Positions 3,129 to 34,151 of a stretch of 64,000 nucleotides of DNA are shown here, piece by piece (within the stretch, counting starts at the first letter, position 1; the number at the start of each line of letters is the position of its first letter). Under the pieces are notes generated by a model. The model did not search any database and had not been told where the DNA came from. It saw only the letters and a list, made by a program, of their open reading frames with translations. Made by a program: the position numbers and the translations under genes. Origin of the DNA: Somniosus microcephalus (Eukaryota); the NCBI GenBank assembly GCA_052327205.1, contig CM126225.1, forward strand, positions 6,634,001 through 6,698,000, read 5' to 3'.

Positions 3129-3852
3129 CTTTTGTTTCCTTCTCGGAAAGGGTCTTATCCGCGCCAGGAAACTGTAAGGAGGATGTCTCTTGTACAAAGG
3201 CACTTTCTCTTCCCCCTGTGCTCTTTCCCGGCTCTCCGCGGCCCGGATCTTTTGAGGTGCTCACTTTTATGTCTTTTTCACCTGGTTTGGAGGAGGCCGA
3301 CGTGGCGAAGGAAGAAGTGAAGGGAATGCTGGACTGAATCGAGCACGGAGCAGTGACTGGCTGCGGCTGGTTGTAATCCGTCGCTTTGTCTGATGGATAG
3401 TTCGGTTCAGAACGGAAGTAGCTGGGCACGGGGACCCTGCCACTGTCACTTGTGCACATTTCAGAAATCACCCTCGAGTACACTGAACCATCAGGGTGCG
3501 TCTTCGCATGCTTATCCCCGTCTAATAAACAGTAGTTGGCTTCTTCCTTGACGCTGGACGCGAAGGAGTAAGTGCTTAGCTGCTGAAGTCGGCCTGTGTG
3601 GCTGGATGGTGACGGGGTTGCCCATCCTGCCATGCCTGGCACGTACTGATGTGGAACCAAACCTAGACCTTGTTGGTGGTTCATCTCCCCTTGTTTACGA
3701 TGTGCTAAGTCAACTTGCCAATGCTGCACCCCGTAGCCCCGGTCCGGTCTGGAGGACAAATAACCCCCAAGACAGCAAGGCTCAGCCCGGCTGGAGCAAA
3801 TTAAAGACTTCACTGAAAACGAGCTTGAAGCAGAATTCTCAGAACATGACAT
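3129..3852 (-). CDS. HoxB10: Hox paralog group 10 gene, coding exon 1 (probably HoxB10); homeobox exon 2 not in window
   Basis: ORF MSCSENSASSSFSVKSLI...NHQ...YVP...W...SF...VKEE...VPVPSYFR matches Hox10 exon-1 motifs (HoxA10 MSCSESPAANSFLVDSLI; HoxD10 IKEE, VPVPGYFR; from memory). It ends at a phase-1 donor AAAG|GTGGGT (GT at 3128-3127). B-cluster assignment is inferred from the lack of intact Hox11/12 upstream and a non-HoxC10-like N-terminus. Confidence 0.85.
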
Positions 3853-4020
3853 AGCTGCAGCTTAATTTGCTGAGGAGGGGGGGGGGGGGGAAGGAAAAAA
3901 AAGGTTCCTTATCAAACTGACATTTCTCTTGGACTCATCAGAAGGCGGCTGTAGACAACTTCCTCCCAGCCGGCCAATCAGAATGCCGGCAGCCACTGCA
4001 GGCTCCGCCCACAGCACAAG
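3853..4020 (-). promoter_or_regulatory. Hox10 proximal promoter/5'UTR with CCAAT box and short uORF
   Basis: GGCCAATCAG (NF-Y type, CCAAT 3974-3978); upstream ATG TCA GTT TGA at 3923-3912; poly-C tract before the main ATG. Confidence 0.6.
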
Positions 4021-7000
4021 GGATTTGAAATGAGAAGAAAATTGATGCATTTGTGGGGCTCAGCAACACCTAGTTATTGTGACAAATACACGCTTGTTAA
4101 TTCTGCTTTTATTAACCAACTCGGAGGGGAATCCTCTCGTTCTCTACACAGGCACACTTACCAGTTCAACTCAAACAACGTGCTTAACAGTTTTTTCTGG
4201 CAAAGTAAAACAGAACAAGATTATAATTTTTCCGACAGTATGGCGACAACAGGAACGCTGGAGGAGCTCTGTGCATTTTTCAAGTTCTGTTTTGTGGTAA
4301 TTCAGAGAAAATAAGGAAATAAGAGCAAACTTGAAAGTAACACTGGAAATTCACTAGTGGAAATAATATATTAGCTTTCAGGAGGAATAATGCCGGCACC
4401 TCGAGGTGATAGATAAAAACATATATATATTATATATATATATATAATTTATTGGAACGGCTACATGTTAATTTATGGTTTCAATAATGTCATACAGTTA
4501 TGTGACATTAACAGGCTCCCATCGGATCGGGCATAGAATTAGGAGTTACTCTTACGTGAAGCTGAATATATATTTTACACACACGCACAAACATGAGTTT
4601 GAAAGCAAACTTTAAGCTTATTTTAATTGGTAATGGCGGCATTTAACATATAAAATTAGTACTGGGTGTGGGAACCCTGCAGTTTCCAAATCCATATAAG
4701 TATGGATATCATGTCATACAATACTGGATGTAACAATACAGTGTAAATGACTTGTACCAAATAATAAATATTTAACTTCTCTCACTCTCTCGTTTTCCTG
4801 TGCTGGGTTAAAGTAGAACAGTGGGACTCAGGGTTCGGAGATAACCGCATTTTCCCCATCACCCGGACACATATTTTAATCCGTTCAACTAGCTATTAAG
4901 AACAAGAGTTACATTTTAGTTATTTATTTTAACTGTTCGCAGTTTTTCGAACCTGTTGTTACCTTGTAATTTTCAACAACAAAAAAAGGTAAGAACTTCA
5001 CTTTACTGCTTCGATTTTATATCCCCGAGACTTTCCCCCTTGCCTATTTACATTTGTTATCCAAGTCTTTAAGTCCCTTATTTGCTATTTTAAAGATGAA
5101 TAATTTAATATTTATGATTTACATAATTAAAACCTGCTATATTTATTTATGTTTTGAACTTTATTATGCTTCATCGATTTAGAGAGCTGAATACACAGAT
5201 AAATAAATAAAGAAGCAGATTAATGAATCGATAATTGTACTAATCCAGCTGCGGATATTATCTATGATATAAAGCGCGCACACACACATCTGTCTGAAAC
5301 AAAGAGATCTCAGTACATGTGTGCATTAAGAGACCAATCGTTCTGCAGTTTATACATAAGCATTAAATCTGATTTTATGCACCCCTAAAGTTTTCAAGTT
5401 TGGGCTAAACTTGTTTTTCCCCCCAGAGCGAGATATTTTCGATCTGTCAAATTCACGCACAGTTGAAAAAATCTTTATTAACAAAAGATAAAGTTTGAAC
5501 TTTGAAATACTACCCCCCCGCGAGGCCTCACCCTCCCAACTGTAAATATTTTAAGAACCAAAAAAGATCTAAATCCCGACGATGACAGATAGGGGCATTT
5601 TTATTGACAACTGACTAACTAACTACAGATTTGTCCTTTTCAACCTCAATTAAATCGGCTTTCATGACTAAAGTTAAAACTGTTCAGTCCGCACATATTT
5701 GAATCCACTGCAAGCAGTGCCGACGAATCAGCAACGTGTGTTGGAAATCCGGCCGGAACTCAATATGCTCTGCAGTTATTGAATTAGGGTGTAGACAGGA
5801 TTCGATTCGACGCCTCTCACACCGCTTGCCGCCCCTATCCACCCCGAGAAATATATCATCTAAAATGAAATGAAAACGCCTTTGTGTGCATAACTGGACT
5901 TAGTTACAATTCATAAGCGGGTAATATTTCACAGAGGCAATAGGAGATTGTAGCATGTTATTGCCACGTGGACGGGACACGCGTGGTGGGGGGGGGGGGG
6001 CACTTTTTCTACCCCGAACTGCAGCAATAATTCTACAGAAATGACTGAGAGGCTGCTTGTATAAGCGGAGAATAAGCGGAGGGATTATCCCGTCCCTTGC
6101 TTGTAACGAGACCCTGGAGTACAGTATTTTGGGAGAGAGACGAGATTAAAGGGATGAGAGGGATATTATATGTACCAAGGCCTTATAGAGTGCAGTGTCT
6201 GAGTAAAGCACATCAAACTTAGCGGCTAATTCCCAGCAAGACACGTTAATAGTGGATATTACCACCCCATACAAAGCAAATAAACAGAGAATATAAATGC
6301 AGGAGTCAGAACTATATACAATATACAATAATTAGAGTATATATATATATATAATATATACACACACTCGCAAATCTCTGAATAGAGATAATGTTGCATG
6401 TCGATACAGTCTGAAACCTCATTTACATTCTATTCCTTATCTAAGCACACGGGCACAACATTGCATAACTGTTTCGATAGACACAGATTCCGGCTACATT
6501 TTGTCACCTATATTGCCTGTAAATACGACATACGCTCTCGCGTAATGTCGGACAAGTCTGTTCGAGGCTGAAATTGTTTATTGAGGATATACTGCTGCAA
6601 AACTGCGGATTTAGATCCACTTTTTAACTGTTTGTAGACACTAGCCCACAGTTTAATTGTGAGGCATAAAATAATGATTAAAAACACAGTGAGATTTGGC
6701 ATATTCTTTAGCGAGCTTGTGAAAAGAGTTCCACCCAAAAATGAGATTACCCAAATTGATAAGGGATATAATTATAAACATTTCTCATGCTTCATTCCAC
6801 CTCCACAGTACGCATCAATCTGTTGGTATCTTTAATTTAAAAACACGATGGTTTACACACGAATTTGAGTGTAATCCTTGCACAAAGGCCTTGGTAAACA
6901 GTGTATCCGTCTAATTGTGATATATGCGCTGCTGAACAGATAGGGTTTACCGATCAGTGCAATATATATGAGCTTATTTTTTTTTAAATAACAAAATTCA

Positions 7001-9065
7001 TTTTGTACCCCCTTCCATGAAAAAAGCCCTTGGGGATTTTAAAGTATTAAAGTAACACACACCATACACTACATCATAAAGGACACCTTTGTACAGAGTT
7101 TTTTGTGTGTTATGTGATTCGTGCGGGTTTTTCTTTAACCCGAATTAACGTTGAAATTTACGATGGAGGCCACGCTTCCCACAAACCTTCAGAAATGCAC
7201 AGTTCACAATCCAAGGGGCTCCTGATAAGAATTACTGCGCCGAGTAAAAAAAACATTGAGGCTGCTTTGAGTGCGGAACCGTCTCTGATGCTGGTGGCTG
7301 CTCGGTGAAAGCCAGCCATATATAATTCCAAGATATTTAAATCAGATTTATACAATAAAGGTGACAGCAACAGCCCCAGGAACCCGGCACGGCCATTGTT
7401 TAGGGAAGAATTGCAATCACAACGGTGCATTTAAGTGAAGAAATCTTTTTGAAAGGGTCACGTTATTTTTTTCCAGATTCGAAACACAGTTCATTAATGG
7501 CTCCTTAACAGAATATCACTCAGTGGGGGGAGGGGTGGGGGGGGGGGGAGGGAAGGAGTTGCTTATTGCGAGCAGGACACATACCACAAAATGGCGTCAA
7601 GACTCTACCCTGGAGAAATTCATGCAATTGATTTTTGGAAACTTACACAAAAATATTGATTTCTGTTCCATGATGCTACAATAATAAGATGGGTACCAAA
7701 AATGGTTAACCAGTGATACTCTCTTAACTATAACTCAAAGTTAGTTGGAAACTAATACTGTAGGCTTTATAGTTCCCTAGTTTAGTATTGTAAAACTAAA
7801 TACCGTAACTTTTGAATCCAAACTGGTTAAACCTGAAGATCTCACCATTCAGTCCACACTAGTCCTTATGGCTTTATTCCGTCTCTCTCTTTCTCACGCT
7901 CACTCTTTCGTTCGCTTTCGTTCAAATGTACAAGCGAAGGAAAGTTTAAAATACTGAGCGGCCACGCAAAGAACAGCTTCATATAATGACTCGATATATC
8001 GGTGAGATTGGCATGTGTCTATATTATCGAAAGTAAAATAGCAACAACATCATGCATTTGTACAGCTCTTTTAACATAGATAAAGGGTCCTAATCGCTTC
8101 AGTGAATGTGACGCTATCTACTCAGTTCCTTGGATATATATAGGCGCATATAATAACATTAACATTGAAATGTTAACATTTTTGAGGCTTTCTCTATTCC
8201 ATTAATTCTAGGTTTCTTCTTGGCAAGTTTGCACAAATGGGTAACAAGGAAATTCGCCCGTTTTATTTCACAAAACTGACCGTTAGAATAGAAAGTCACA
8301 TCAGTGTAATAACAGCTCGAGTCGGTGAGTAGTGGTCACTGAGAGAGGGACAACACAGATACTGATCTGTTATTAAGCGACAGCTTGCGGTCTGTTTTTA
8401 CACACACCCATATATTTAATATCAACACAGTTAAAACACAATGAAAACTAGCTATTCATTTGTAATAACTCCACTGTATTTCCTCACTGGAATCAGGTAC
8501 ATTTTACCAGCTATGGACTCGGAGCGCCCGCCTATTATAAGTTATACTTTTCTAACTTAAAATATAATGTTGAGGGAGAGATACATTTAATTCCAGCACT
8601 TTCAATCAATTTTTCTGGGACATTTCTGCATCTTTGATATAGTTTCGCTGCAACTTAATCAATGATCGGCCTCCCACACAGACTCCTTTGGAACAGATCT
8701 AAAGCTCGATCGCTAGGCGTTCAAAATAAGTTTAAAATTGCAGGAGGCGCTGTCCCCGTTATTAAGTTCCAAAAGTGGATCCTGCCCTTTGCTTGTTTTA
8801 GTTTATTGTTATTATCAGAATCTCACATAGGATACAGCGCGGTGAATGGACGGAGAGTGACGCCAGGAAACGAAACAGCTATGAAAGACACCACAGAATC
8901 CTCCAAGAGTCTACCTTCCGTCAGAACAATTCCCTGGAAACACATCGGCTTGCGGCTAACCGCAGCTATAAGAATCGAATATCAAACCTCATGCAGCCAG
9001 TAAGCATTTCAATCCGTGGTCATTGTGTCTTTATCGACAGCATGAATCACCAAGAACGCAGCTCT

Positions 9066-9197
9066 TTATCTATCTATCTATCGATCTATCTATCTATCTA
9101 TCTATTATCTATCTTTCTTTCTATCTATCTATCCGTGTCTGTCTATCTGTCGGCTTATTTATCTATATCTATCTATCTATCTATCTATATCTGTCTA

Positions 9198-9237
<40 letters not shown>

Positions 9238-9415
9238 ATCAGTTTCTTTCTATCTATCTATCCGTGTCGGTCTATCATTCGGTCTATCTATCTATATCTA
9301 TCTAGGTATCTCTCTCTCTCCATCTATCTATCTATCTATCTGTCTGTATATCTATCTATCTATTTATCATCTATCTATCTATCTATCTATATATCTACTA
9401 TCTATCTATCTGTCT
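9066..9415. repeat. (TATC)n microsatellite
   Basis: Imperfect TATC tandem array. Confidence 0.95.
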
Positions 9416-15971: not shown

Positions 15972-16014
15972 TTGACCCCGGGGTCAAAGGTGACCTTGAC
16001 CTGACGGAAGTTCA
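15972..16014. promoter_or_regulatory. Composite nuclear-receptor response element
   Basis: TTGACCCCGGGGTCAAAGGTGACCTTGACCTGACGGAAGTTCA: six RGKTSA-type half-sites in 43 bp. Confidence 0.5.
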
Positions 16015-17414
16015 AAGACAGTGCTCATTAGGCCAGAAGGAGAGAAAAAGACGGCCAGGCACTTAAAGCATCTGCGTTTTCTGGGAAAGAGGCAGAGAGA
16101 AAGAGAGGGGTGATAAAAAAGCGAGAAAGGAAAGAATGAAGGGGAGACAGGGAGATAAAGAAAAGCAAGTCGTAGAGAGGAAGAAGGAGACAGTAAAGAG
16201 GTAAAAGGGGGACAAACAGACACATCCAATGAATCGGGCAGCATCTGTTATGAGAAAGAATGTCGTCATTTTGGGTAAAAATCATTAGGATTTATAAATT
16301 TCTGCTTTAATTAGAAATGTTCAGCCACTGCAGCCTGTTAAAAACTGAAACAGGCAGCGAGGGAGAAAAGGGCGAAGAGATAGACAGACCGAGGCAGAGG
16401 AATGAAGATGGAAAGTGGAAGGCGGAGAAAGGGGTGGAAAAGATGGGAAAGGAAGAGAGAGACTGGGGAGAGAGAGAGAGATAGAGGGAACAGAAGAAGG
16501 AGACAATAACAGATCGGAGAGACAAAAAACAGAACTGCCAGCAAAAGGCTTGTGCCTCTTATCCTATCAGAGCGGTTGTAGAGAAAGAGTCGAAATCTTA
16601 TTTCATCGACACACATGCAGCAACACGAATGGGAGGTGGTGGAGACATGAGCTTATCCGAGAATTGAAACTACAAATGATAGTCAAAGAGCGAGCGATCG
16701 AAAAATCGAGCCAAAGAAGAAATGAAGAAATGACAGGATAGACCGTAGAAAATGTGTCTTAATTTTAAAAAAAACCCTCAGTGTAAACAGTCGGACCCAT
16801 TCCCTCACTGTGAGATGCACATCTGGACAAACAGCCTGAATATTTTTCACCAGATAAAGTCCTGGCCTCTCCTAGTTCTACTGTATGTATGCAGGAAGTT
16901 GAAAATAACGAATTGGTCCCCGGCCCGTACGGAAAGCAAGTCTGGCTTTAAACATTGTGCAGGTTGTGTCACGGGCTCAACATGGCCGCTCGGGTTCCTG
17001 TGCTGGGACTACATAAATACAGGTCCCCCACCCTCGAGTGAGATTGTGACTGCTTGGCCTTTGTCCATTCAGTAAGTTTTAATTAAAAGAATAAATAAGA
17101 TAAATGCAAATATCCGTTAAACTCAACAAGGCGAGAGAGAGAGAGAAGTCTTGTTCTACCCGATATACACCAACGTCACAATTCGCGTCATGATTTCAAG
17201 TTGGTATTTGTTTTTTTCTCTCCATTTTTTGATTTCAGTCGAACTTCTCTTCCGTTAGAGACAGAGTGCTGGATCTACAGGCAGAGAGGTAAAAGGACAG
17301 AGTGCGGCGGAGAAATAAACACAGACAGGCACAGAGAGGGGCAAAGAGACACACAGAGGGAGAGAGAGAGACAGAGAATGCGACAGGGAATCTATCAGAA
17401 TGTAGGCGATGAAT

Positions 17415-17725: not shown

Positions 17726-18675
17726 GTTTCCACATGTACGTTGATGGCACCAGCTCTACCTCACCACCACCTCTCCCCACCCCTCCACTCTCTTTAAATT
17801 GTCAGACTGCTGACATCCAGTACTGGATGAGCAGAAATTTTCTCCAACTAAATATCGGGAAGACTGACGCCATTGTCTTTGGTCCCTGCTGCAAACTCCA
17901 TTCCCTAGCCACCAACTCCATCCCTCTCCCTAGCATATGTCTGAGGTGGAACCAGTCTGTTCACAACCTTGGTGTCATATTGGAGCCAAGATGAGCTTCC
18001 GTCCACATATCCCTGTCATCACAACGGCCGCCTACTTCCACCTCCATAACATCGCCCGTCTCCACCCTTGCCTCAGCTCATCTGCTGCTGAAACCCTCAT
18101 CCATGCCTTTGTTACCTCCAGACTGGACTATTCCAACGCACTCCTGGCTGGCCTCCCACATTCTACCTACATAAACTTGAGGTCATCCAAAACTCGGCTG
18201 CCCGTGTCCTAACTCGCACCAAGTCCCATTCACCCATCACCCCTGTGCTCGCTGACCTACATTGGCCCCTGGTTAAGCAGCGCCTGGATTTCAAAATTCT
18301 CATCCTTGTTTTCAAATCCCTCCATGGCCTCGCCTCTCCCTATATCTGTAATCTCCTCCAGCCCGACAACCTCCTGAGGTCTCTGCGCTCCTCCAATTCT
18401 GCCCTCTTGCCCAACCCTGATTTTAATTGCTCCACCATTGGTGGCCGTACCTTCAGCTGCCTGGGCCCTGAGCTCTGGAATTCCCTCCCTAAACCTCTCC
18501 ACCTCTCTCTCCTCCTTTAAGACGCTCCTTAAAACTACTCTGACCAAGCTTTTGGTCATCTACCCTACTCCTCATGTGGTTCGGTGTCAAATTTTGTTTG
18601 ATAACACTCCTGTGAAGCACCTTGGGACGTTTTACTACGTTAAAGGCGCTATATAAATACAAGTTGTTGTTGTTG
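17726..18675 (+). mobile_element. L2-clade LINE, 5'-truncated
   Basis: FHMYVD (YADD-like), NFLQLNIGKT, LIHAFVTSRLDYSNALLAGLP, LHWP..RLDFKIL; tail AAAGGCGCTATATAAAT plus (GTT)n. Confidence 0.9.
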
Positions 18676-19119
18676 CATGCTGAGTATGTCTGGCTCAGGA
18701 TAAGCGCAGAAGTACTTTGCTAAATTCTAAACTGTTTCGATAGTGATTTGCTTCGCTTGGATCGGGGGTGGGGAGCACATGATTTGGCCAGTTTGTACCT
18801 CACTTAATAAACGGGTTCTCTTTAATAATTCGAAGCATTATTTTTGCTTTTAATAGAATGCAAAATCTATGAAATCGCGTCGACCCTTAAGTGGAATTAA
18901 ATACTAACAGGGTTGCCATTCTGGGTTCTGGACAGATAAAACCGGCCTGTCAATTCTGGGAGACTCAGTTTGAAGGATGTATTTTGTGAGAATGACGTGT
19001 GATGATCGGGCGCATATTGTTCCAGTGTGCTGTAAACTACCAACTACATTGGAGGAAAATAATTGTCGATATTGTTGATATTGCCATGTCTTAATTTACT
19101 TGAGTACCAATTCTCTAAC

Positions 19120-19586
19120 ATTCTCGGACTTCAAGGGTTAAGTTACGAGGAGAGATTACACTAATTAGGGTTGTATTCCCTTGAATTTAGATGGTCGAGG
19201 GTGATCTGATCGAAGTTTTCAGGATATTAAGGGGAACAGATAGGGTAGATAGAGAGAAACTATTTCCGCTGGTTGGTGATTCTAGGACCAGGGGGCAGAG
19301 TCTAAAAATTAGAGCCAGACCTTTCAGGAGTGAAGTTAGGAAACACTTCTACACACAAAGGGTGGTAGAAGTTTGGAACTTTCTTCTGCAAACGGCAATT
19401 AATGCTGGATCAATTGTTAATTTTAAATCTGAGATTGATAGATTTTTGTTAACCACAGATATTAAGGGATATGGGGCAAAGGTGGGTATATGGAGTTAGG
19501 TCACAGATCAGCCATGATCTCATTGAACGGTGGAGCAGATTCGAGGGGCTGAATGGCCTCCTCCTGTTCCTATGTTCCTATGTTCT
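19120..19586 (+). mobile_element. CR1-clade LINE 3' fragment
   Basis: GDLIEVFRILRG..RTRG..RKHFYTQRVVEVWN; tail (TTCCTATG)n. Confidence 0.9.
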
Positions 19587-21387
19587 CTGGCCCACAGCTT
19601 CGTGGCGCTTGCTTAACAAGGCGGAGGCATCGTGGGGCTCGGAACTCGATCTGTACGAAACATTCAAAGCAGTAAAGATAATCGAGGCTGGGTTCAACCC
19701 GAATTCTTACATCGTGTGTACCGGTCCCGGGGGGCAGCCAGATCCGGGTTCGGTCAGACCAGGCCTGGATTACCGAGGCTAGCCTTTCCTTCAATGTCTG
19801 TCACACAAAGGAATTAATTTGTGTCTTTTAATCAGATTTCACACCTCCCCTTGGCATCCCAAACTCTGGCTGTTTTGCGAGGGGTGTTGTCATCGCCGTT
19901 TATTGCGGGGCTGTGATTCTGGTTTCAGTCTGAACTTTATCTTGATTGTTAGGCAATTAAAAAATACTTTTTATAAAAAAGCATAAAACTGCGAAATGGT
20001 AAAGGGAAATATTTCTGCTGCAGGGATTTACAGCTAAGAACATGTATTTATCAGGAACGAATATAGTATTGCGAAAATCTGCATGATGATTTAATTTAGA
20101 TCAATGGATCAGAAACACTCACTGAAACAGCATCAAAGGTTGAGATATTTTAATTTTTAGTGGAAATATTCAGGCAAGCCCTTTTTAGAAAACTGAATTA
20201 GCAAGCATTGTAGATTGAACATGCTAACAAGTTATTGCAGAAAACTTGCAACTGAATAGTTAACATTATTATACCTGCATTGCTAATTATTACATATTAT
20301 TCCGAAATAAGGGTTCTGAAGGCGCCACCGCGCTGAATCCACAAGGCTGTTTTCATAATGGAAATCTATCTTACTAGATAAATTATAACAGAAAATAATT
20401 CTAAGGCAAAGATTAATAATTAAGAAACTGCTCGCTTGAAATATCTGTTGACAGCGATCTGTGAGACTGTGAATCATTTCAGGTCCTTGGCTCCCCATCA
20501 GTTGGGCCGGGAGGTACTGGCACATTCCTCTTCTTGATGTAATAATCTGTTTGTGTCACTCGGTGTACCCGTTGTGCCCTGTTTTTATGACTGAAACCAA
20601 GCATAATAAAGATGTTAATGTGAAAAATGTGATTAAAACGCCAGCAACTCCATGAATGTTTAACCGGAAAGTGCACAAAGAACTTTATATGACCTTACAT
20701 GGCTTGTTGCCCGCCTCCATCTTTTAACTAAATGGGCACCATTTCAGCTTAGTAGGGCGAATCATCGACAGGTAGAGAGAATCGTATATGTACCCTCAAG
20801 AAATTAAAATAATCTTTAAATTAAAAATGTAATACATTGATCCGTGGATTTATAACATTTAAAACAAAACCCTATTAGGCGTCATTTATTGCTGAGAGGC
20901 TTTGCATGCAGGTAATCCATTTGGCTGCCCTGGAGCCGGAACCTGAGCCTTACCTGTTCATTCCTTGATGTACCTATATGTCTAGGTGTAATTAATTATC
21001 ACCACCAGATACATTTTTCAACATATGATGCATAATTTGTCAACGATTCCGAGATGTTACATGTACAGCAGACCCCTGTTTGCTGCATTACGGCGGGATT
21101 CAGATATGTTTCTCAGGGCGAGACTGACTTAAAATAACTGAAGATACCATTATTAAGTGTATCATCACTGACTGCGCTCTTGCTTATAACTTCATTGCTA
21201 CTAATCCAGTAGGTAGTGATTTGCGTCTCAGGACGTCAATGTGAATTAGGTGATATCACGATTGCCTAATGCATGCACACTTAGTCTGTTCTGTTCATTT
21301 AAAAAAGATGTGCTTTTGGAACTTGCAGCTTTGATAATGTGTTCCCGCAAGTATTCTTAAAGCTTTATCAGTATTGTCCTTGAACTA

Positions 21388-23012
21388 GAATTACATCGAA
21401 TCTACAGCACAAAAACAAGCCATTTGGCACAAATGGTCCATGTAGGTGGTTACGCTCCACACGAGCCTCCTCCAACTCTAACCATCTCTTCCCACCCTGC
21501 CCCCATACCTCTCCCCTATTCCCTTCTCCCTCATGTATGCATCTGCCCTTAAATTCATCAATACTACCTGGTTCAACCATTCCATGTGGCAGCGAGTTCC
21601 ACATTCTCACCACTCTCTGCGTAAAGATATTCCTCCTAAATTCTTTATTTGATCTATTAATGGCTATCTTGTATTTATGCCCCCTTAACTCACTGGTATA
21701 AACGGTTTCTCCACCCTATTGAACCCTTTCATAATTTTCGAGACCTCTATCTGGTCTCCTCTTATATATATAAATAAATGATTTTGACTCAAAATTTGGA
21801 GGTACAGTGTCGACACTCTCAAATGATTGCAAATTGGGGCTACAGCTAATAATGGGTTAAAGCCATTCTCGTTTCCAGAGAAAAGAGACCCAGGCTGCTT
21901 AATCTTACCTGGTAGTTGCATACCCTCAATTTTAGTAACATCCTTGTAAATCTTTTTTCCACTTTCTCCAGTTATTATTATTTTGGTAGTATGCAAGTCA
22001 GATCTGCACATTCAAAGTTTAGTCTAGCCAAGGTTCTAAATAGATGTAATATGATCTCCCTGCTTTGTATTTTATTCCTCTACAAATCCACCCCAATCTT
22101 TATGGTGCTAGCAACTTGTATTGCTACTTTTAGTGATGTATGTAACTATATTCCCAAATCTCTTTACCAATCTACCCCATGTAGTTCCTTAACTTCCAAG
22201 GAATAGGTGGCCTCCTTATTCCTCCTACAAAAACGAACCACCTCACACTTCGCTATATTGAATTTTAATTGCTGTTTATCCACTTACTGTGCAAGCCTGT
22301 TTATGTCTTCCTTTATTTTGGTGCAGCCTTGCACATTATTAACAATAGCCCCCAATTTGGAATCATCTGAGAGTGTCGACACTGTAACCCCAACTACTGA
22401 GTCAAAATCATTTATATATATGGTGAAAAACAGTTGTCCCAGCACAGATTGTTGTAGGACACCACTTCCTACTTTCTGCTAGTCTGAGAAAGTTTATTTA
22501 ACTCCTACCCTCTGTTTTCCATTTTGCAGACATCTTTCAGTCCATTCTGCTGCCTGGCTCCTGATTCCACACAGCCTGACACCTTCTCAAAAGCCTTCTG
22601 AAAGCCCGAGTATACCGCATCCACTTCATCGCCCTTGTCTATTCTTTCTGTTATTTTTCCAAAGAATTCAATAAGGGTTGGTTAAACACGACCCTCCTTC
22701 TAGAAATCAATGCTGACTATTTTTCATTATATTCTCGTATTTGATTCTAGTATTATTCCTACTACTTACGTTAAGCTAACCAGTCTATAGTTCCCTGGAT
22801 TAGTTATATCTCCCTTTTTGCAGATAAGAATTACATTTGTTGCACGCCATTCTATTGGCACTGTTCCTTTTCTATTGATTTAAAAAAAAAATATATATAT
22901 AAGTAGCTCTGCTATCTTCTCCTATCTACCTAGTTTATTTGAGTATCTGTGGGTGCAATCCATCTGGACCCGGGGTCTTGCCCTCCTTAAGTTTGTCTAG
23001 TTTGTCTATTAT
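21388..23012 (-). mobile_element. Degenerate CR1 LINE fragments (RT and 3' end)
   Basis: MVRMWNSLP; reverse-complement NYRLVSL, DFQKAF and xDDSKLG remnants. Confidence 0.8.
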
Positions 23013-24747
23013 CTCCTTTCTCGCCAATTTAACTGTTGTAATAACATTGACTTTTGCTGAACTGCCATTGCACGATAGACCTGTGCTTTGGAGTATTTTG
23101 TAAAATATGTACGGCCTCTACTCTCAGACAATTGTGTTTGATTATGAATAACACAAAGTGCAACCACTTGCAATAGTTGTACAAAACTCGACATGGAGCC
23201 ACATGGGCAAGCGCTTGCCCATAAAAATATTGCAACTCTCCAAACCCTGTAAAGTTAATTTCAGAGAGATTGCGAGATGGCGGAGCGGGAGTCGAGTTTT
23301 ATCTATAAGTTCCCAATTCTGGTAAACATTTAGTTGCGTCAAATTAGTTTAGAACTTTTCACTGATAACTATATTTTAAAAATGGTAAAAGATGCTATGA
23401 AACTGAACAGTTTAAAAGCAAAGTTCTTAACAATTGTTAGTTAGAAATATCTTCAAACCTTCACTTTTATCAAAAGGATGAAGAGCAGATAGAATTGTTC
23501 TTGCCCAGTGGGTTTATCTTGTGCCGACGCTGTACATGTTTCCATTATGTCCTGGAACTCAAATGAAAGATTTTGTTTATCAAACAATTAAGATTTGAAG
23601 TTAGCACGTAATTTGGGATGTAATTTGGGATGTAATGTAAAGTATTTCTTAGCGCAATATTTTTCCCTAAGGATTGCATGCAACAATGCATATTACTAAA
23701 TGAATCTTCCTTCATTTTTCAGTACTCCCATATTTTGAGAACTAAGATATTCAATTCTACAACCCAGCATTCTCACCAAACCCATTTTCTGCTAACATTG
23801 ATGGGTTTTATATTCTTGTTATCCTGTGACAAGAACACCGTGCTTAGATTGAAATGAGGATTACATTAATTGAAATGGTTTAAATCTCGACTGACAATGT
23901 ATTAAGTGACATTTAAACATTGCTGCACACGATTTAATGGAGAAAGCGAGGATCATTGTGTCATGCTAACTTGTTTTAGTCAAATAAATACTGAAAGGGA
24001 CCAATGTAATATATGGCGTCCGTTGTAAATATGCAATATCAGGAAGGTGCAGCAATCGTTATAAATGTCTACGCTTCTGTGTATCTTTTCTTTATAGTCT
24101 AAATGATGTTTAAAGCGCGCCATGGGCACTTAAATCGGTTGTATTGAAAATTAAAGCTTGAAGGTCCTTTCAGCGATAAAGAGAAAATTATAAACTCTGC
24201 ACACTTTCTGCCAAAGGCTGGTGTTGCACTGTGCGTTTGCAAAGCTAGTTCTGGTCTGTAATACAAATTCACCTACAATATTCATCTTTGAGGGTCAGTT
24301 TATTTATACTGGCGAGACATTTCGATGTTATATGCAAGTTTAATGTGGATTTCGAAGGGATGGCGAGTGCCTTCATCCCTCGGATTGTATGTTGCCCTCA
24401 ATTTAATGGATTTTAAAACTCGAGTGAATAACTGCAGTTGGATTTGCAGGGCCAGCGCTTAAAGTTACTAGGAACCAAACGGCCTTCGACATCTGGTCTC
24501 ATCTGGAAGCCGAGCTGATTTTTCCAAGTTAAAAACTCAGCTCCACAAGTGAAGAATTTAGCACCAGCATAAATGCTAATGAAAACCCAGTAAAATGTGT
24601 CCCAGAATAAGAGCGGTGGCCACTTTAAGGGGTCGGGTATACAACAGCCCGATAGAGTCGGGGTCTCTAGTGAAGTGTGTTCGATTCTATTGACATTAAG
24701 TGAAATGCAACATTTTTTTTCCAGTCCGAAACTGAATTTGTCTACCG

Positions 24748-24945
24748 CTTTTTTTCACTCACCAAACAATGATAAGAATTTCGCCCTAACGCGCCAGATA
24801 AACTTCAGATTCCTGGATTAAAAGCTATTGGCCTTTTCTTTGTTTGTGTGGAGTTGGAAGCTCTCTCTCGCTCTCTAGCACCAAATTTGATGTTTGCTAC
24901 AAGAGGCACCCCTGCCTCTGTCTCTTTTTTTCTTCAGCCAGTTGT
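24748..24945 (-). pseudogene. Hox11-like pseudogene, homeobox (exon 2) remnant; candidate psi-HoxB11
   Basis: After acceptor-like CTAACAG (AG 24947-24946): AGA AAA AAA (g) AGA [RKKR] .. TGC c(t)CT TGT AGC AAA CAT CAA ATT TGG .. CTA GAG .. GAG AGA GAG .. TTC .. AAC .. AAC AAA GAA AAG [NKEK] .. TCC AGG AAT CTG AAG .. CGT TAG .. GCG AAA TTC .. GAA AAA AAG [EKK]. Collinear with the Hox11 homeodomain, with frameshifts and stops. Confidence 0.75.
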
Positions 24946-25344
24946 CTGTTAGCACATAAAATTTGCACAGACAGGCAATAAAGTGTCTGGCTGCTGTGTA
25001 CGCTCCCTATACAACGGCTTGGGGAAAAAACCCGCTGATTTTAAAGGCTGCCACAGCACAACCGTGGGATTGATATTTTAGCTTCTACCCGCATTAGAAT
25101 GTATAGTCTCTATATATTTTTGGAAATGCTGACATTTTTTTTTCGTTGGTGGATAGAGATTTTAGAAGAACTCTAAAAACAATCAACACCACTGTGAAAA
25201 CAAATCTGTAAATTGTACTTGATCGTGGATGTTTGGTGTGAAGTTTTCAAAGTTTAAAGCACCATTAATTAATTTTAATTGTAAATATTCTGCATGGGTA
25301 AAAATCCAGGGTTTTAAAATACAGGATGGATTGGGAAAAAAAAT

Positions 25345-25941
25345 CAGTGTCTTGTTGGAATTTCGTTGCCTCTGCTCGCGCTCTGGGCTTTTTATGACCG
25401 TATCTGGGGCGACTGGCTGCAACTGAGTGAACTTCTCTTGTTATTCCTGTCGCGAAATTGTTTTCCCTCCTGCAGTTTCTAACCTTGAAACGGTTCCAGT
25501 CCTAAACTCTATTCCCTGGACGCATTCCCCTGTGGAACTTGTCGCTCATTCTAGAGCGGATGTTAATTCGAGTGATTGTTTAACGTGTTGAATATTCGAA
25601 TAAGAATCTAATTCTATTGACTGGTTTCTTGTTTGCTGCTGGCATGTTGTTGGCGAACCTTATAGAAACCAGTTTAATTTTTTGGGGGGTGGGGGCAAGG
25701 TTTAATTAATTAACACATAAAGCTGCATCGCCAACATACATAGACAAGCAGCACCTATTAAAAACGGCACCATCTAAAGTCAGAAAGATCTGTCTATTGC
25801 AGTGCAGGCGTCTCAGTACTTCACGAAATCCCAGGTTAGACCCGCCTTTGGACAAAATTGACATTCTTAAAATTCACACGCAATTGCTCTTCATATATGT
25901 ACCTAAGGGTAAATAAATTACCTCCTCTCGTCTTTCAACAT
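25345..25941 (-). pseudogene. Hox11-like pseudogene, exon 1 remnant; candidate psi-HoxB11
   Basis: CACC ATG TTG AAA GAC GAG AGG (MxxDER), YLPxGTY, SILSK, SNL, REV, AID, KFHRGMRPGNRV* (cf. NFYSTVGRNGVL) and LETAGG (cf. FETAYG), in Hox11 order with broadly similar spacing; donor not located. Confidence 0.7.
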
Positions 25942-25965
25942 GGTGAACCACATGGCGTACGATGT

Positions 25966-25977
25966 GATCACGTGATC
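25966..25977. promoter_or_regulatory. Palindromic E-box GATCACGTGATC just upstream of the psi-Hox11 ATG
   Basis: Perfect 12-bp palindrome with a CACGTG core (USF/TFE class), 25 bp from the relic ATG. Confidence 0.45.
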
Positions 25978-28900
25978 GCACCAAGAATGCACCATTACTT
26001 GTACCATACACTTCAGAGGCCAACATTGGTTCAAAGGCGGTGGGAAGTCTGCAGTGTTTTAAATGCATCTTTTATTATTGTGTCTGTTGTGGTGTCGATT
26101 CGCAGTGGTAGCCATCGAGCTGCAGAACACAGATATCTCGTGTGAAAATACTGATGATGATTTCGCCGCTCATCTCTTGGAATTAACAAGTAAAAATGTT
26201 GAATTTTATTGTAAGGGCCTGTTGTAGCGACTGTTTATTTTAATAAACACAATCTTGGCCTACTCCTACTCCTATTTCTCCTGTTCTTATGTCAGAATCC
26301 TGTCTAATCGCCAAATAGCTATTTTAAAACATCCCATAATTATTTATTTGACTAACTTGTTTCCCAAACTACCACGCATTTTTTATTGATCGTAATAATT
26401 GATTCAAAATGTCCTTTCAAGGTGACTTGCGCAATATATCCTCCCAAGGTACAGTAGTTAATTAGTACCAGTCTGCCTGTTTTACAATAATTTTAATTGC
26501 AATTCTATTGAGACGTCTTAAATCTAACCAAAAATGAGCACACCGTGTTCCAGTCAGAGCATGCAAGTATTGCCCTGTGATTGTCACCGTTCTGCCAATC
26601 AAGCATGTGGAATGTGGCACAAATCTCGTTATTTGTTTTCTTTTGAAATTGAAGTCAAAACTGCAACAAATTCTTTGGAAAAAGGATTAACCCGAGTAAC
26701 TTATTTAAACCTTTCACTCTGTACATTGGTTGTGAATTTTTTTTTTTTTACTTTAGGGACGCGTTTTATTCCCCGCGGTATAAGAATACAAAATATTGGA
26801 GGAAATATTACATCATGCTTGGCCGGCCCGCACACATTAGCATCGAGGCTTTCGCTGACGCCAGCGCTTTCTCTTCAGAGTTCGTTCATAAATCCATGCA
26901 GTTCGCTGGATCCGAGAAAAATAATTGATGAAAGTACAAAAAGAAACAGAGAAGTTGGTCATTCATTCATCTCTATGTTGATGCTGCAGCATAGTTTTTA
27001 AACTGGCTTTCCAGGGTTTATGGGAGGGTTCATTTCAGGATCGTGGATTAAACCCAAGCATTGTGAAATGAACAAATATGTTCGTTTGCAATCAACATAG
27101 GAATAGCAGGATACTTAGTGCCAATGAAACTACTGCATCGCTGCAGGACAATGGTCTTGGAACGTGGCTGAGCTGAGCTCTCCAGCAGCTTTGAAAATAA
27201 TTCCCTATCGAAAGCAATGAATAGAAATATTCATTCGTTTTCAATAAGAGCGCTGACTAATGCACAAAATGTTCAGCACTCGGCCAAGGTATAAGACTCT
27301 CAGAAGCGCTGTTCATACACAGTAATTTTTGTGAGCATTTTAAACTTTTAGCCGATGCTCTGAAGAACGACACTCGGTGTCTACACACCAACATCCAAAC
27401 AGATTATTTAACTAGCCAGCAAATAAACTGCCGCTTTCCCGTCTCGTTTCTCCGTGCACTTGTAGTACCCACTCCGCGAAGACTAATGGTTAGCAGTAAA
27501 CAAATTCAGCCCTCAAACGGATGCTGGCTCAAAGATAGACGAACCGACCACTTCCCCCTGTTTTACTGACAGGCAAACATGTTCCTCATTCCAACTTTCT
27601 CCTCATAAACTCCTGTCCGAAAGGATGTCTACAGACATTCTCGAAATTAAATATCTCAAGCATTTTTTCACCGGCTTACTCTTTAAACGTTAACATATAT
27701 CTTCCTTTTGCAAAAAAATCTGTAACTATTTATAAATAATCCCTTTCGGGATGTCTAACAAAAATTGAAAGTTGGTAACTTTTCTATTTTTAGTGAAACT
27801 TTTAAAATGTAAACTATGTTGCAGTTACGTACGGTTTGACATTGAAATAGCAAACAGAAGTATTCCACTTAAATATACAAACATCAGATTAATTCTAAAA
27901 TGATAGTATTCGTGCACATATCTCAATAAAAACCTTTAGCACGTGGGTTTAGGAATACACTGATTTTTTTGTTAATCTAACCATAACACAAGGGACAATA
28001 TCTGTTTTGCAATATTTTTTGTGATAGAAAATACGAAATTCAAGAGCGAGGTTAAGGAGACTGGTTGTCTGGGATAAAAACGGAAGATTCCGGAAAGACA
28101 CAGCGGGTCAATTAACAGCGGCGGAGACAATGGGCAAGTAAGCCGTTGGTAAACACCTGAAAGCCTCGCCGGTTTTACTGTTAGCAGGTTGAGTGATTTG
28201 CTGAGCATTTTAGTGCATTTTATTTTAATTTCAAATTTCTAACATTGCACGAATTAAATATTTAAAAACTCTGGCTTTGTATAAACATAATTAAATAACT
28301 TTGAATACAGACAAAACAAGTGAGTTTACAGCGTTATTTCCAAAGCCGGATTAATGTGACAGGCTGATTTTTGCCTGTTTAACCGTTGCCCAGGCTTTAC
28401 AAACACACAAGTAACCTGACTCCCGCAAATGTTCATCACCTTTACTGTGTCGTAATATTGTAGCAGGTATAGAGAGGAAATAGGGAGCATTGCACCAGAT
28501 AAGGTTCCTCCTCCCCTTAAAGGAACTGCAAATTGAACATTAATTATTTTTCCTGTAAATGCACCCCATGATCAGCGTGTAAATATCTAGTCCCACTCTG
28601 CGTGTTTCCGACAGGATCGCATTTTTCAAGTGTCGTTTTACAATGAAGTTCTACAAGTTTTGTATAAAATAAAAACATTTCGTCTATAAAACAAATTTCA
28701 GCGATTTTTCCCCTTTTATCGCCGATTCCTGTCCTGTAGGCACAATTAGCGCCCATCTGATTTTTAATAATTTCACTCGTTCAGTACAAATGAGTTACTT
28801 CAACCGCAAACAGGTCTACTCGGGTTGGGGGAAACTGAATCAGGAAACAAAATGATTACAGACTGGTTCCACAATTAATGCAAGATAAACTGTGTCTCGC

Positions 28901-30479
28901 CCAGTCCAAGAAGCGTGAAGGAATTGGTCTGAATGGTAAACCAATACATACCGTTTTAAATCCAAGTTTGGAGGATCACGCCGTTCGTAACAACCGCTTT
29001 ACATTCAATGTCAAAACGGCACACACAAAATGATCAATGATGGAGAATAAAGAAGGCAAAATTGTTTTAACAAAAATGTAAATCGTTATAAATGATTTTC
29101 TTTTATTTTTTAACGAGAGGTCAAGGTGAAAAGCTAAGGTCCAGAGTGCACCGCACCACAAAGGCTCCTCCAAACAGTTAAACAAAAGAGGAGGAAGTCA
29201 ATTAGAAAATAATGATTAGGTGACGCTAATATTGCGATTTAAAGTCCTGAAAACGGTAGAAAGGTAAAACTGAGGGAGGTAAGAAGGCGCACGGTTCTGG
29301 GAAAGAAGGATCCGCAGTGGGAACCTGTGAATGAGTGTTGAGGATGCAGGGAGGGGGGGTGGTTTATGGAACCACACACTTGGAGCTTACAAGGAACAAG
29401 CCCGAGAAGTTCATAGCTGCAATGGTCATAGCAGAGAGACAGACAGACAAAGACCGAAAGGGTATGATGAATACATTACTTACTCTTAATAGGTTTACAT
29501 ACTGGAGGCAACTTAGGAGAAAAGAGCCGATGTGATTCATTTTACACCGTGCAGGGTTGAACTTGTACCTGTAATAACAACACCAAGAAGTGGAAAGCGT
29601 CAGCACTCGCGCAATGTGTGTGCATAATATTAACTCGTGCAGTGCTCGAGTTTCGAGGTCCTCGTTTTCATTGGTTGCAAAAGTCTCATTTTACACCTTA
29701 AAAGGTTCCTACACTGTTTCCGGATTTCAGTTGCAATCGGGACAAAGTCACATAACCATAAATTGTCAATATTTCTGTGTATTTTTCCACTGAGTTTGTA
29801 TCATAGCAACAGCTCTGTAGATTGTGACACTTTCACCTTTCCTATACACAGAGACATGCACAATATATCTTTCCACACAAATATAAACTCTCTCTCACAC
29901 AAGTATACCGCAGCCTTTACTACACACACATTCTCGCTCTCACACAAAAGCTGTAAAGGTCAAAATAATTAAACTATTAAACGGATATTTGCTAGAAATA
30001 TTCAATAGGGAATATAACACTATCCGGCCATCCAATTCTTGTAACATTCCCGATGACAGAGGAGTTTGTAGTTAGTACGGCGGAGCTGCTTGCCAAGTTA
30101 ACGGGACTTTAACACTGACAAATTATTTGGGACTGATGGGATCGAACCTGTGGATTTTGACGCCAACAAGAGAGGAATTTGCGTCGCAAGGCTATCGTCA
30201 TGAGCGAATCACTGGGCACTGCTGAGGTTTTGTCGGACTGAAAGCAGCATATTTATTGCCTAGGTTTTAAAAGGGTAACATATCTGATCGAGGTAACGAC
30301 AAACTCATTAGCCTAATATCAATAATAGCTAAAATCATGGAAACTATTCTAATGGAAAGGCTGGAGGTCACGTTTATGTAGCATCTTATCACCTGGAGAT
30401 GTCTCAAAGCACTTCACACAGTGATTTATATTGAAGTGCAGTGACTTGTTATTTACACGAATAACTTAATAAGAGTGGT

Positions 30480-30930
30480 CGGGGGCATAAAGGGTTAAAT
30501 TAAGGGGACAGGTTGCATATACATGGCTTGTATTCTCTTGAGTTTAAAAGATTGCGGGGTGTACTAATCAAGGTATTTAAAATGATTAAGGGATTCGATA
30601 GCGTTGATAAATTATTTCCTCCGGTAGGGGAATCCAGAACAAGCGGACACAATCCTTAAATTGGAGCTAGACCATTTAGGTGTGAAATCAGGAAGCATTT
30701 TTTCGCACAAAGTGTAGTGGAAATTGGAACTCTCTCCCCCAAAAGATTGTGGAAGCTGGGGGTCAACTGAAATTTTCAAGACTGGGATCGATAGATTTTT
30801 CTTGGGTAAGGGTATTAGGGGAAATGGAACGAAGGCGGGTAAATTGAGTTAAGGTACAGATCAGCCATGATCTAATTTGAATGTCGGAACAAGCTCGATG
30901 GGCTGAACGGCCTGCTACTGTTGCTATGTT
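30480..30930 (+). mobile_element. CR1 LINE 3' fragment, flanked by older CR1 RT remnants (~30270-31370)
   Basis: Same family as 19120-19586 (gtacagatcagccatgatct..gggctgaacggcct). Confidence 0.8.
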
Positions 30931-31559
30931 GAAAGAGCCAGCATTGAGTTAGGAGGTGGAGAATTTTACAAACCCTTTGGAATAATTTGAAGATTGGACA
31001 GACAAAATAGTGAGATTCTAGGATATTATTCATTTGGAACTTTCAGAACTTAAACTAAAAAATACAAGGATCCAGGGTAGAACTGAATAAGATGTTGGTT
31101 ATGAAATAGGAAACCGGATACTGGGTTGAACTGGGGGAAATTAGAGCTGTCCCACTAGGGTTAATGCTGAGATCTCTGTGTTTCCCCCGGTCTACACTAA
31201 TTACCTGGATATCAGAAATGATCAGGTTTGCTGAAATCGATTTGCAGAAATATTAAAATCTGTTATGCAGCCGAGCAGACAAATGCGAAATTAACTTGAT
31301 AAATGTAACGTACATATCGTAGGTATACAACGTTTGCAACCGAACTATCAGAACGAGAAATAGGCAATCTTTATACAACCACCTTTGTGTTAATGTGGAA
31401 AGGATTCTGCTGAAATGCAAAATCAACAGTATTGGTGGTCCAAGATCTGAGTCTCCTTCTAATATGAGGTTTCAGACACATTCTGCTGTGGACTGACTCC
31501 AGTATAACTTCATTTTGAATAGGTTCGTGCCTTGAATATCTCTTAATATCTCTCAATGT

Positions 31560-31775
31560 CTCTCACTCTCTCCTGCTTTCTATCCTATCACTGACCTTCC
31601 CTTTTGTTCTTTCATCCCCTCCCCCTTTTCCCAACCCCCAAACTTGCTTTCCATTTCCTGCTTTTTTTCCAGTTCTGACGAAAGTTCATCGACCTGAAAC
31701 GTTAACTCTGTTTCTCTCTCCACGGATGCTGCCTGGCCTGCTGAGTTTTTCCAGCGTTTCCTGTTGTTATTTCAG
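31560..31775 (+). mobile_element. Penelope-like element 3' tail (pLTR remnant)
   Basis: Near-identical to the tail following the GIY-YIG ORF at 58020-58120. Confidence 0.8.
31671..31707 (+). ncRNA. Minimal hammerhead-ribozyme-like motif (PLE type)
   Basis: AGTT-CTGACGA-(weak stem II)-GAAA-CGTT-AACT. Confidence 0.45.
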
Positions 31776-32129
31776 GTTCGTGTATAAACAGGAATCGCGT
31801 GACGCAATGTACAGTCTCACAGTGTGTATTGAATCCCCAATACAAAGCCAGAACAGATTAGATACAACTACAAAGTAAGTAAAACTCTTGTCTTGCACAT
31901 ATGTATTACACTTCGTTTTACAATGCGGCTACAGAGCTTCCGAATGCGTAATCTGCGCATGCCTGTGCACAATGGTCTATATGTATGTGCCTGTGTCATA
32001 ACGTGTAATTCCATTTTCTGTGAATGCGTGGGCTGTCTAAATCAGTTTCATTGTAACTTCAGTCTGTAGAACTGATTCAAACTGAGACATGTACCAGTCT
32101 CAGACCATATATGTAGTGTAATTGCAGCC

Positions 32130-32545
32130 TTAGAAATTGACCTGAGAGTGATAGCAAACTTATCACCCTCGAAGTCTAGACAGTATGGCAAGTCAATGTA
32201 AATAAGAGAATGGACTGCTGGGATATATACTCAGAAGAAAGGCTTTAGAAGTTATGTTGAGTCCTTACAATGTACAGGCCAGACCCCACTTGGAGTACAG
32301 TGTTCTGTTCAGGTCACCGCGTCACAAAAGCATATACATGGCGCAGGGCAGAGCAACATAAACAACCCGAAGCATAAAGGGGATGAGCTGTGAGAGAAGA
32401 CTGGAGAAACTCAAGTTCTATAATCTAGAACGAAGTTAAAGGGAGACCTCATGGAGGTATAAAATATATTAAGTGGTATCGATTAGGTAAACTAGGGACA
32501 TTACTTCCATATAATCCAGGAAGTGAGAACCAGAGGATATGCATT
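32130..32545 (+). mobile_element. Old CR1 RT fragment
   Basis: agaccccacttggagtacagtgttctgttcaggtcaccg resembles RPHLEYCVQFWSP. Confidence 0.7.
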
Positions 32546-32942
32546 GCAATTTAATTTTTTGAAAAAATTAAAACAGATATTTGGAAGAACAGCTTTACTC
32601 AAAGTTTACATGTTTGCATGTATGGAGACTAGCCTATTGGATGCTCTAATGGGAAGGATTCGTTTCGATGTTTTTCTCTCGCCCTTGACTTACATTATGG
32701 CCTTATATCCTTCCACTCTGCCTCACACAGAGACATACAAACATAGACTCTTCACACACACGTAAACCTAAACCAAAAGCGTTCAAATGTGATCAAATGT
32801 TATTTTTACATCGGCAAAGGCTGCTATAAAGATATTTCCTAAATTAGTGCAAACAGCTGATTCGATAAGAGTGAACTCTTGTTATTCCTGTAATAAGTTG
32901 CGGCACGCTTTCTCATGAAATGACCTCGAACTGGATCTAACT

Positions 32943-34151
32943 ACGAGCGTTTTCTAAAGTGGTGGAGTTATTTTGAAACTCGTTGGTGTCTGATTGAATC
33001 GCTGATTTTGAATGACAATATCCGAAGTATTTCCTATTTCCTTTGCAGCCGTTCTAAGGTCGGGTTTCACCTCTCGTGAGCGTTTTGCTGAAACACGGCT
33101 GTGATAAACCCAAACGGCAGAAGGCCTGATTCCCTCATACAAATACACCGCACCTTCACATTCACAGCCGTCCACACAAGTCCAAGCTAAACTCTTCGAG
33201 TTTTAATGTTTAAGGAATATTGAACTAAAGTTATCTTTGTACCAGGGAAACTTTGAAGATGCTACAGCCGCATTGAAATGGAGTTGGTGTTTTCAGCTTG
33301 TATTTTATGTTTAGATTTCCGGAAGATGAAATATTGGATGAGGAGATTGGCCTGCATGCCCTGGTAGTCTAGTTGTGAAACAGCAACTGCAAAATACAGA
33401 ACATTCTCACAGATTTCTGTTAGTCTCAAGGTACGGAATTCCAGCATCACACTTCCCAGGCAGAGGAACCTCCAGTGTGAGATTCAGCCTTGACAGGTTA
33501 GAAATATTTTATTTTAGTTAAAATTCTCGAACGTTAGCCGTGCTTATATCACAGCACGAGTCTTTAAAACTCCTTAAATTTGAATCCGAATATCGACCTA
33601 TTCTCCATGAAACTGCAAGTTCGAAACAGGTTGCTGTTTGGGTACAAGTGTAAGTTCATTACCCGTATATAAAACGTATGGTATATGTCAATATGATAAA
33701 TTTGCAATAAGTGTACTTGTATTATCAGTGCAGAAATGTTGTGAATAATTGTCCTGCTTTCTATAGAGTTAATCGCCTGATTGTTTTTAAACAGTGGATT
33801 GTTGAAATATATTCATTATGGAGCTGCTGAGCCTATTTTCATAAATGCACTAACATTAAAACGATGACGATTGAGGTATGTTTTATTTGCATTGATCTGA
33901 TTATTGTTCATGTCTACGTGATCTTTGCTTCCGCAGATAAAGCACATAGTGCTCAATCAATATAAGCAAACCAGCAGTACCTGCGAATTTGTTTTACGAA
34001 TTTTCAGAACAGAACCGATAAACAATGATCAATTATGATGTTATCAATTTTGGGGATTGGACGAAGGGAGAAGAGGAGAGAAGAGCAGGGTGCCCCATGA
34101 CATTAAAATTAACAATTATAATGGCGCTGTGGAAATACTCTGAATCTTCAT
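32943..34151 (-). pseudogene. Hox12-like pseudogene remnant (both exons); candidate psi-HoxB12
   Basis: ATG at 34151: MKIQSISTAPL*LLILMSWGTLLFS..LRP(N), cf. HoxD12 MCERSLYRAG..LLNLQSPDSFYFSNLRPN. Exon-2-like segment ~33125-32943: CAG|GC CTT CTG CCG (cf. GLPW), RSRE-VKPD+6 codons+EIGN (cf. RSRKKRKPY+6 codons+ELEN), CGA TTC AAT CAG..CAA CGA GTT..AAA ATA (cf. RLNLSDQQVKI). Confidence 0.5.

Follow-up and report, generated by a model that had tools for sequence, protein, structure and literature searches.

Unitary Hox pseudogenes left in a chondrichthyan cluster have been described in the elephant shark, where the relevant passage of PMC3707753 names only HoxA14 and HoxB14. Accounts of caecilian psi-Hoxd12 and coelacanth psi-Hoxd13, in the parts of PMC3091776 and PMC4470032 used here, describe decay in place; there the interval with the pseudogene is enlarged, and repeats are concentrated in it. 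Hox pseudogenes with a build-up of repeats are therefore already described, and the kind is not new. Here we analyse the spacer between HoxB10 and HoxB13 of the shark Somniosus microcephalus, in a stretch of 64,000 nucleotides (nt) called the window below (G000:C24:6634001-6698000; genome of 6.4 Gb). We propose that it holds one real, broken posterior homeobox, likely of a HoxB11 gene that died in place, with the Hox12 relic proposed earlier scoring at chance level; we give this reading a probability of about 0.6.

The shark relic, like the elephant shark HoxA14 and HoxB14 pseudogenes, would be a unitary pseudogene; it differs from them, as far as that passage goes, in lying inside the cluster, in being far more eroded (28-36 bits) and in belonging to a gene unlisted there. 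The caecilian and coelacanth pseudogenes, as described in the parts cited, have intact orthologues elsewhere, whereas the shark relic is a partial homeobox with paralogues only. Compared with the mouse Hoxb9-Hoxb13 spacer, as presented in the consulted portion of 10.1101/2024.07.20.604409, the shark spacer retains HoxB10 and a homeobox remnant, and keeping both suggests that one gene at least was lost by decay and not by deletion. In amniotes, according to the same portion of that source, HoxB11 and HoxB12 are known solely as missing genes. No report of a HoxB11 or HoxB12 remnant was found in the literature searched, which was mostly without subscription papers, figures, bioRxiv supplements and the primary elephant-shark Hox paper. 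To our knowledge, the two genes are known only by absence across all jawed vertebrates.

A decayed homeobox between HoxB10 and HoxB13

A homeodomain search of the genome placed a Hox cluster on the minus strand around the window; a homeobox of paralogue group (PG) 10 is located 2.2 kb beyond its left end and a PG13 box (HoxB13) 12 kb beyond its right end. Three further clusters, found by the same search, lie on C5, C4 and C33. By gene content and sequence they are HoxA, which includes a Hox14 pseudogene, HoxD, which includes Hox14, and HoxC, which is rich in repeats. Exons A11 and D12 have 96% and 81% identity to chimaera HoxA11 and HoxD12, and identity to shark HoxD12 is 92-97%. The window is therefore the HoxB10-HoxB13 spacer of a shark-type genome. 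All Hox profiles were built from paralogues of this same genome.

An earlier note on this DNA had proposed a collinear order, on one strand, of a Hox12 relic, a Hox11 relic and an intact Hox10 exon. It gave no relic coordinates; we took its Hox11 relic as the 24.8-26.9 kb stretch, and its Hox12 relic as a stretch that ends with the ATG at 34151 and has its box near 33.08 kb. For Hox11 we located the following feature.

24747..24949, minus strand: decayed posterior Hox homeobox, likely HoxB11; core in register at 24833-24949

The relic lies on the cluster strand, 21 kb upstream of HoxB10, in the collinear place between B10 and B13 and 5′ of a noncoding element that in HoxA and HoxD lies between Hox11 and Hox10 (see below). 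It is interrupted by stops at 24877, 24820 and 24757, its helix 3 is unrecognizable, and an in-phase AG acceptor-like site is present at 24946. The sequence has a single copy in the genome (one genomic match) and is unmasked by the repeat library.

Among the 11 nhmmer models tried on the window, PG11 scored 12.2 bits at the relic (E=0.0018; reached by 0 of 200 shuffles) and PG10 scored 9.0 bits (2 of 200). As genomic controls, 600 kb of genome were scored forward and reversed in 20 windows of 60 kb; the best matches there had 8.8 bits for PG11 and 5.2 bits for PG10. With decay-aware profiles for PG9-14 the relic scored 36.0 bits (PG10), 27.9 bits (PG11), 24.6 bits (PG9) and 17-18 bits (PG12-14). 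Its best-of-six score was reached by none of 83 and none of 193 shuffled windows (family-wise; Gumbel P=5.6e-4), and its best score by 0 of 4000 in each of five composition-preserving local shuffle schemes and by none of the 20 genomic windows. Three blocks in a single register, with no net indel, gave 38.9 bits against 18.2 bits for the best of 2,395,200 control positions, the blocks having been chosen after the site was seen. For comparison, the HoxA14 pseudogene, used as a positive control, scored 66 bits by the same method; it is located at G000:C5:210256778-210256940 and matches HoxD14 exon 2 with E=7e-10.

The relic is spanned by contigs of organisms C, D and E, with differences of 3.7% (X13) and 6.2% (X15), and is thus no artefact of assembly. 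On 23.1-35.5 kb, organisms C, E and F have collinear DNA contigs.

One could argue that the match at 24.9 kb arose by chance in purine-rich unique DNA, Hox11 and Hox12 having gone without a trace and only regulatory elements surviving. About 60% of the aligned letters match, two paralogue groups are needed to explain them, genomic controls came within 1 bit in one test and exon 1 is absent. Against this stand the shuffles just given and the fact that the relic was the top block for A10, C10, D10, A11, C11 and D11 taken singly, i.e. six of the seven PG10/PG11 sequences, the other being B10 (it was also the top block for B9). In addition, the relic lies on the right strand and on the right side of the paralogous element, and its first codon positions match PG10 better than its third positions do. 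We consider a chance match highly improbable; the relic is very probably real as a remnant of a posterior homeobox.

The remainder of a Hox11 gene was sought in the window with exon-1 and promoter profiles. For the ATG-like site near 26.9 kb, 12 of 298 blocks scored at least as high, and for coding exon 1 of Hox11 this was true of 185 of 298. The exon-1 domain DUF3528 (PF12045) was not detected at the relic; in the genome it was found in A11, D11 and C11, with one sub-threshold match elsewhere. A site at 15.9 kb resembled a Hox11 promoter (13 of 200 shuffles) but was dropped because it adjoins the HoxA/HoxD element located 3′ of Hox11. A PG11 promoter match resembling a Hox11 start at 16913-16976, plus strand, i.e. 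the wrong one, had 30.0 bits, above all eight shuffles, which illustrates what scores chance can produce. Of the Hox11 relic of the earlier note, the homeobox remnant has thus stood, while the exon 1 and promoter have not.

Affinity of the relic and a paralogous noncoding element

In a single register without net indel, the arm of the relic has NWL, helix 1 begins with SKHQI and helix 2 has HTNKEK. The arm favours PG10 by 15.0 bits, while residues 20-28 favour PG11 by 13.0 bits; residues 12-19 and 29-57 fit no paralogue group. Over residues 20-28 the matches number 19/27 to D11, 18/27 to C11 and 15/27 to A11, versus 8-12/27 to PG10 and 7/27 to PG12. HTNKEK corresponds, in register, to the PG11 helix-2 signature (YINKEK); the PG10 signature (YLTRERR) is not matched (-2.5 bits). 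When the box only was scored, PG11 came to 27.6 bits, PG9 to 24.3, PG10 to 23.5 and PG12 to 15.8; by the ungapped PG11 profile alone the relic ranks 21st. Judged by its residues, the identity of the relic is mixed, with a PG10-like arm, a PG11-like helix 2 and PG12-14 disfavoured.

Position provides a further clue. Repeat-masked blastn comparison of the HoxA, HoxD and HoxB intervals revealed two noncoding elements shared by HoxA and HoxD between Hox13 and Hox9, one 3′ of Hox13 and one 3′ of Hox11. The former, which holds a CTCF-like motif, is also present 3′ of HoxB13. The latter has a counterpart in the window.

15975..16027, minus strand: paralogous noncoding element

A hidden Markov model (HMM) made from the A and D copies only found this element with 20.1 bits (E=1.4e-5; 0 of 200 shuffles); the next HMM match had E=1.9, and the best control among the 20 genomic windows had 8.7 bits. 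By masked blastn there was an A-D match (E=0.04) as well as a D-B match. The element was not found in HoxC. Its paralogues in HoxA and HoxD lie 3′ of the Hox11 box, at distances of 2.65 and 1.89 kb, respectively. The comparison of paralogous intervals that the earlier note had suggested is thereby borne out for HoxA and HoxD, with the element in the right order, and not for HoxC. Both the element and its HoxD paralogue carry AGGTCA-type half-sites, which we take to be putative nuclear-receptor sites.

The regulatory regions RVIII/RIX lie in the Hoxd11-Hoxd10 interval, according to the part of PMC3091776 available to us, and the HoxD paralogue of the 16.0 kb element is likewise situated between D11 and D10. 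That the two are the same is a lead to follow; no HoxA or HoxB paralogue of RVIII/RIX was found in the literature searched.

The element stands between the relic and HoxB10, as its paralogues stand between Hox11 and Hox10. The location of the relic upstream of an element that in HoxA and HoxD separates Hox11 from Hox10 favours PG11 identity.

The mixed signal could also be explained if the relic came from a Hox10-type gene, or from a Hox10/Hox11 chimera produced by gene conversion or unequal crossing-over of neighbours. Such an event would join a PG10 arm to a PG11 helix 2, with the 3′ flank of Hox11 retained after it; the two opposite preferences given above occur in one register, and the arm and helix-2 blocks are each rare when taken singly (5 and 32 of 2.4 million positions). 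Still, a hybrid profile adds just 3.6 bits over PG10, and the arm is no nearer to HoxB10 (15/24) than to HoxA10 (17/24), while a Hox10 exon-1 trace is absent upstream of the relic. The acceptor-like site lies 26 nt before the box, compared with ~50 nt in PG10 and 14 nt in PG11. We regard this origin as unlikely, yet worth keeping in mind.

Several observations weigh against a decayed HoxB11. PG10 is the best single model, and the arm (NWL, KHQ) matches PG10 at 15-17 of 24 positions and PG11 at 2-4 of 24. The relic has NWL at -8 to -6, whereas W at -7 occurs in none of 143 PG11-signature boxes among the proteins compared. The PG11 profile alone was reached by 2 of 83 and 7 of 193 shuffles, by 13 of 83 family-wise and by two of the 20 genomic windows, and its signal weakens as the decay setting is raised (35 of 100 at d=0.8). 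Helix 3 fails to align in register. The PG9-14 exon-1 and promoter profiles yielded no convincing Hox11 exon-1 or promoter trace in the window. One genomic control window reached 35.3 bits, through a sequence that two of the windows share, and one of the 20 beat the relic at d=0.6, real DNA being heavier-tailed than shuffles. Contigs over the relic show no extra conservation, the differences being 2.4-7.0% over nine tabulated pieces. Finally, the gap between relic and element is 8.7 kb (5.4 kb unmasked), compared with 1.9 kb in HoxD and 2.65 kb in HoxA; the D12 box lies at 10.0 kb.

Candidates for Hox12 and the collinear order

The intact Hox10 exon at the other end of the proposed order was confirmed.

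3129..3852, minus strand: HoxB10 exon 1, intact; open frame from the ATG at 3852, GT donor after 3129

In tblastn comparison with exons 1 of the same genome it matched HoxA10 (E 8e-28) and HoxD10 (E 5e-26). A motif scan and tblastn with 30 Hox exon frames of this genome passed this exon alone, weak matches being spread over both strands. No Rfam match was found in the window.

For Hox12 two stretches were considered.

32900..34151, minus strand: presumed Hox12 relic of the earlier note, unsupported (background-level scores)
27507..27589, minus strand: faint Hox12-like stretch, the best PG12 match in the window, non-significant

At 33.0-34.15 kb the PG12 box score was equalled by 120 of 298 blocks, that of exon 1 by 197 of 298 and that of the promoter by 53 of 298; the joint chain was equalled in 519 of 1136 bins. 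In the best register, identities to HoxD12 amounted to 60/171 and 20/60. Matches of the same grade as the Hox12 candidate are present on both strands, an outcome which the earlier note itself had named as speaking against it. The relic placed there is not confirmed, and with it falls the argument from joint order, since a 12-11-10 arrangement needs two real relics and only one is left.

A weaker version of the proposal is that Hox11 and Hox12 both decayed where they stood, Hox12 being placed either at 33-34 kb or at 27.5 kb. While the former site is at background level, the match at 27589-27507 is on the Hox strand, upstream of the homeobox relic, and ungapped over 83 nt. Under three settings it was reached by 3 (d=0.6), 5 and 11 of 100 shuffles, and by 0-2 of 100 once strand and zone were restricted to those expected. 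At 32.2 kb, a stretch of 32 nt matches the HoxD12-D11 interval (E=0.17). On the other hand, the score at 27.5 kb was reached by four of the 20 genomic windows and exceeded by an opposite-strand PG12 match at 64.9 kb, and four decay settings were tried. The stretch also lies 2.65 kb from the relic, versus 8.1 kb in HoxD. We judge two recognizable relics to be improbable. For Hox12, clean deletion and decay past recognition are indistinguishable.

The top PG12 exon-1 and promoter matches, at 7.5 and 49.8 kb, were not convincing, the one at 7.5 kb being a G-run. With regard to the 32-nt HOTAIR/HoxD11 element, no D-C match was found in the 11-12 interval.

Close to the end of the discarded relic we noted another feature.

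34200..34250, strand not assigned: two putative CTCF-like motifs in opposite orientation, each with one mismatch to the consensus

The pair is situated in a small CpG-rich patch, where the contig of organism D is slightly less diverged (2.4%). By the same consensus, with one mismatch, CTCF-like motifs also occur at 40950 and 7584.

Repeats, transcription and history of the spacer

The repeat library was derived from ~740 kb of this genome, and the masked fractions are lower bounds. The B10-B13 interval of 72 kb was 26.1% masked (15.8% in the B10-side half and 34.3% beyond), with 53 kb unmasked; the corresponding HoxA and HoxD intervals of 25.7 and 23.7 kb were 0.6% masked each. Detected repeats account for ~19 kb of the spacer, which exceeds the A and D intervals by 46-48 kb in length.

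17728-18680, 19126-19586, 21386-21762 and 21861-23016, strand not assigned: repeat fragments in the 8723 bases that separate relic and noncoding element (3287 masked)

The CpG observed/expected ratio is 0.6-1.2 in unique spacer DNA (11.6-16 and 26.6-29 kb) versus 0.16-0.4 in several repeat fragments, which suggests that the spacer may stay unmethylated like the cluster.

The earlier note had attributed the state of the interval to decay in place with expansion of transposable elements. For one gene this is supported by the remnant, by the 16.0 kb element in order and by the repeat content (at least 26% versus 0.6%); for Hox12 it finds no such footing.

The spacer also appears to be transcribed in relatives. 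Three sequencing runs presumed to be RNA (X13, X14 and X9; three studies, two organisms, C and D) share two joints, which correspond to GT-AG introns on the Hox strand at 26811-26120 and 25921-23558. The exons are as follows.

26812..29570, minus strand: upstream exon of the spliced RNA (contigs and joints in X13, X9 and X14; GT donor at 26811; a weak hint of a 5′ end at ~29.6-29.8 kb)
25922..26119, minus strand: second exon (joints 26116/26812 and 23557/25922 in three runs; AG and GT flanks)
23505..23557, minus strand: third exon, 53 nt (donor GC in this genome, GT in organism C)
20700..20794, minus strand: fourth exon, starting at 20794 (a loose end in X9 and X14 maps uniquely to 20767-20793)

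A DNA contig of organism E runs unspliced across the joints. The RNA has at least four exons and is apparently noncoding, with 81 codons as the longest frame in the joined exons; the homeobox relic is located within its second intron. Among the raw RNA reads of organism A (X20 and X21, of which 24% and 31% were read, without a positive control), 14 and 76 aligned in part, almost all of them to a single short repeat. A descent of the spliced RNA from the dead gene is speculative.

The history of a HoxB11 dead in place could have been as follows. After the vertebrate genome duplications HoxB11 would have been redundant with HoxA11, HoxC11 and HoxD11, and its frame may then have been lost. Neutral change is slow in cartilaginous fishes; the dead coding DNA would have drifted slowly, leaving part of the box legible. 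Repeats would then have entered the relaxed interval, while the 16.0 kb element would have been kept, likely because it acts on HoxB10. The present spacer might serve as a transcribed, regulatory distance between HoxB10 and HoxB13 and not as a source of protein.

If this is true, there was a HoxB11 gene after the genome duplications, and it decayed where it stood. The relic and the 16.0 kb element would provide anchors for mapping the spacer, the length or CTCF content of which has been proposed to delay Hoxb13 in mice. Growth of a spacer by decay and repeat invasion would become testable, and so would the survival of regulatory elements or transcription beyond the gene itself. One could speculate further that the spacer keeps a skeleton of lost posterior genes, composed of a HoxB11 box, which may be a Hox10/11 chimera, the regulatory element 3′ of it, a Hox12 box at 27.5 kb that is fainter, and a sense-strand, spliced long noncoding RNA from the dead unit, which would still be engaged in collinear activation of HoxB10 or insulation of HoxB13; in this extended form the idea is doubtful.

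Some observations concern the other posterior Hox genes of this genome. A clear HoxB14 remnant was not found within 26 kb past B13; beyond HoxB13 (window-equivalent 83-97 kb) there were sub-threshold Hox14-like matches alone, of 23-27 bits, and one 84-nt match to the flank of the HoxA14 pseudogene (E=3.7). A HoxA12 remnant was not found between A13 and A11; the place expected for HoxA12 holds, at G000:C5:210271123-210271752 on the Hox strand, a stop-free frame of 210 codons with PG12 signal absent. HoxC is strongly enlarged by repeats, and ~117 kb beyond HoxC13 a diverged Hox4-like gene is located at G000:C33:38370718-38372661 on the plus strand, opposite to the posterior HoxC genes.

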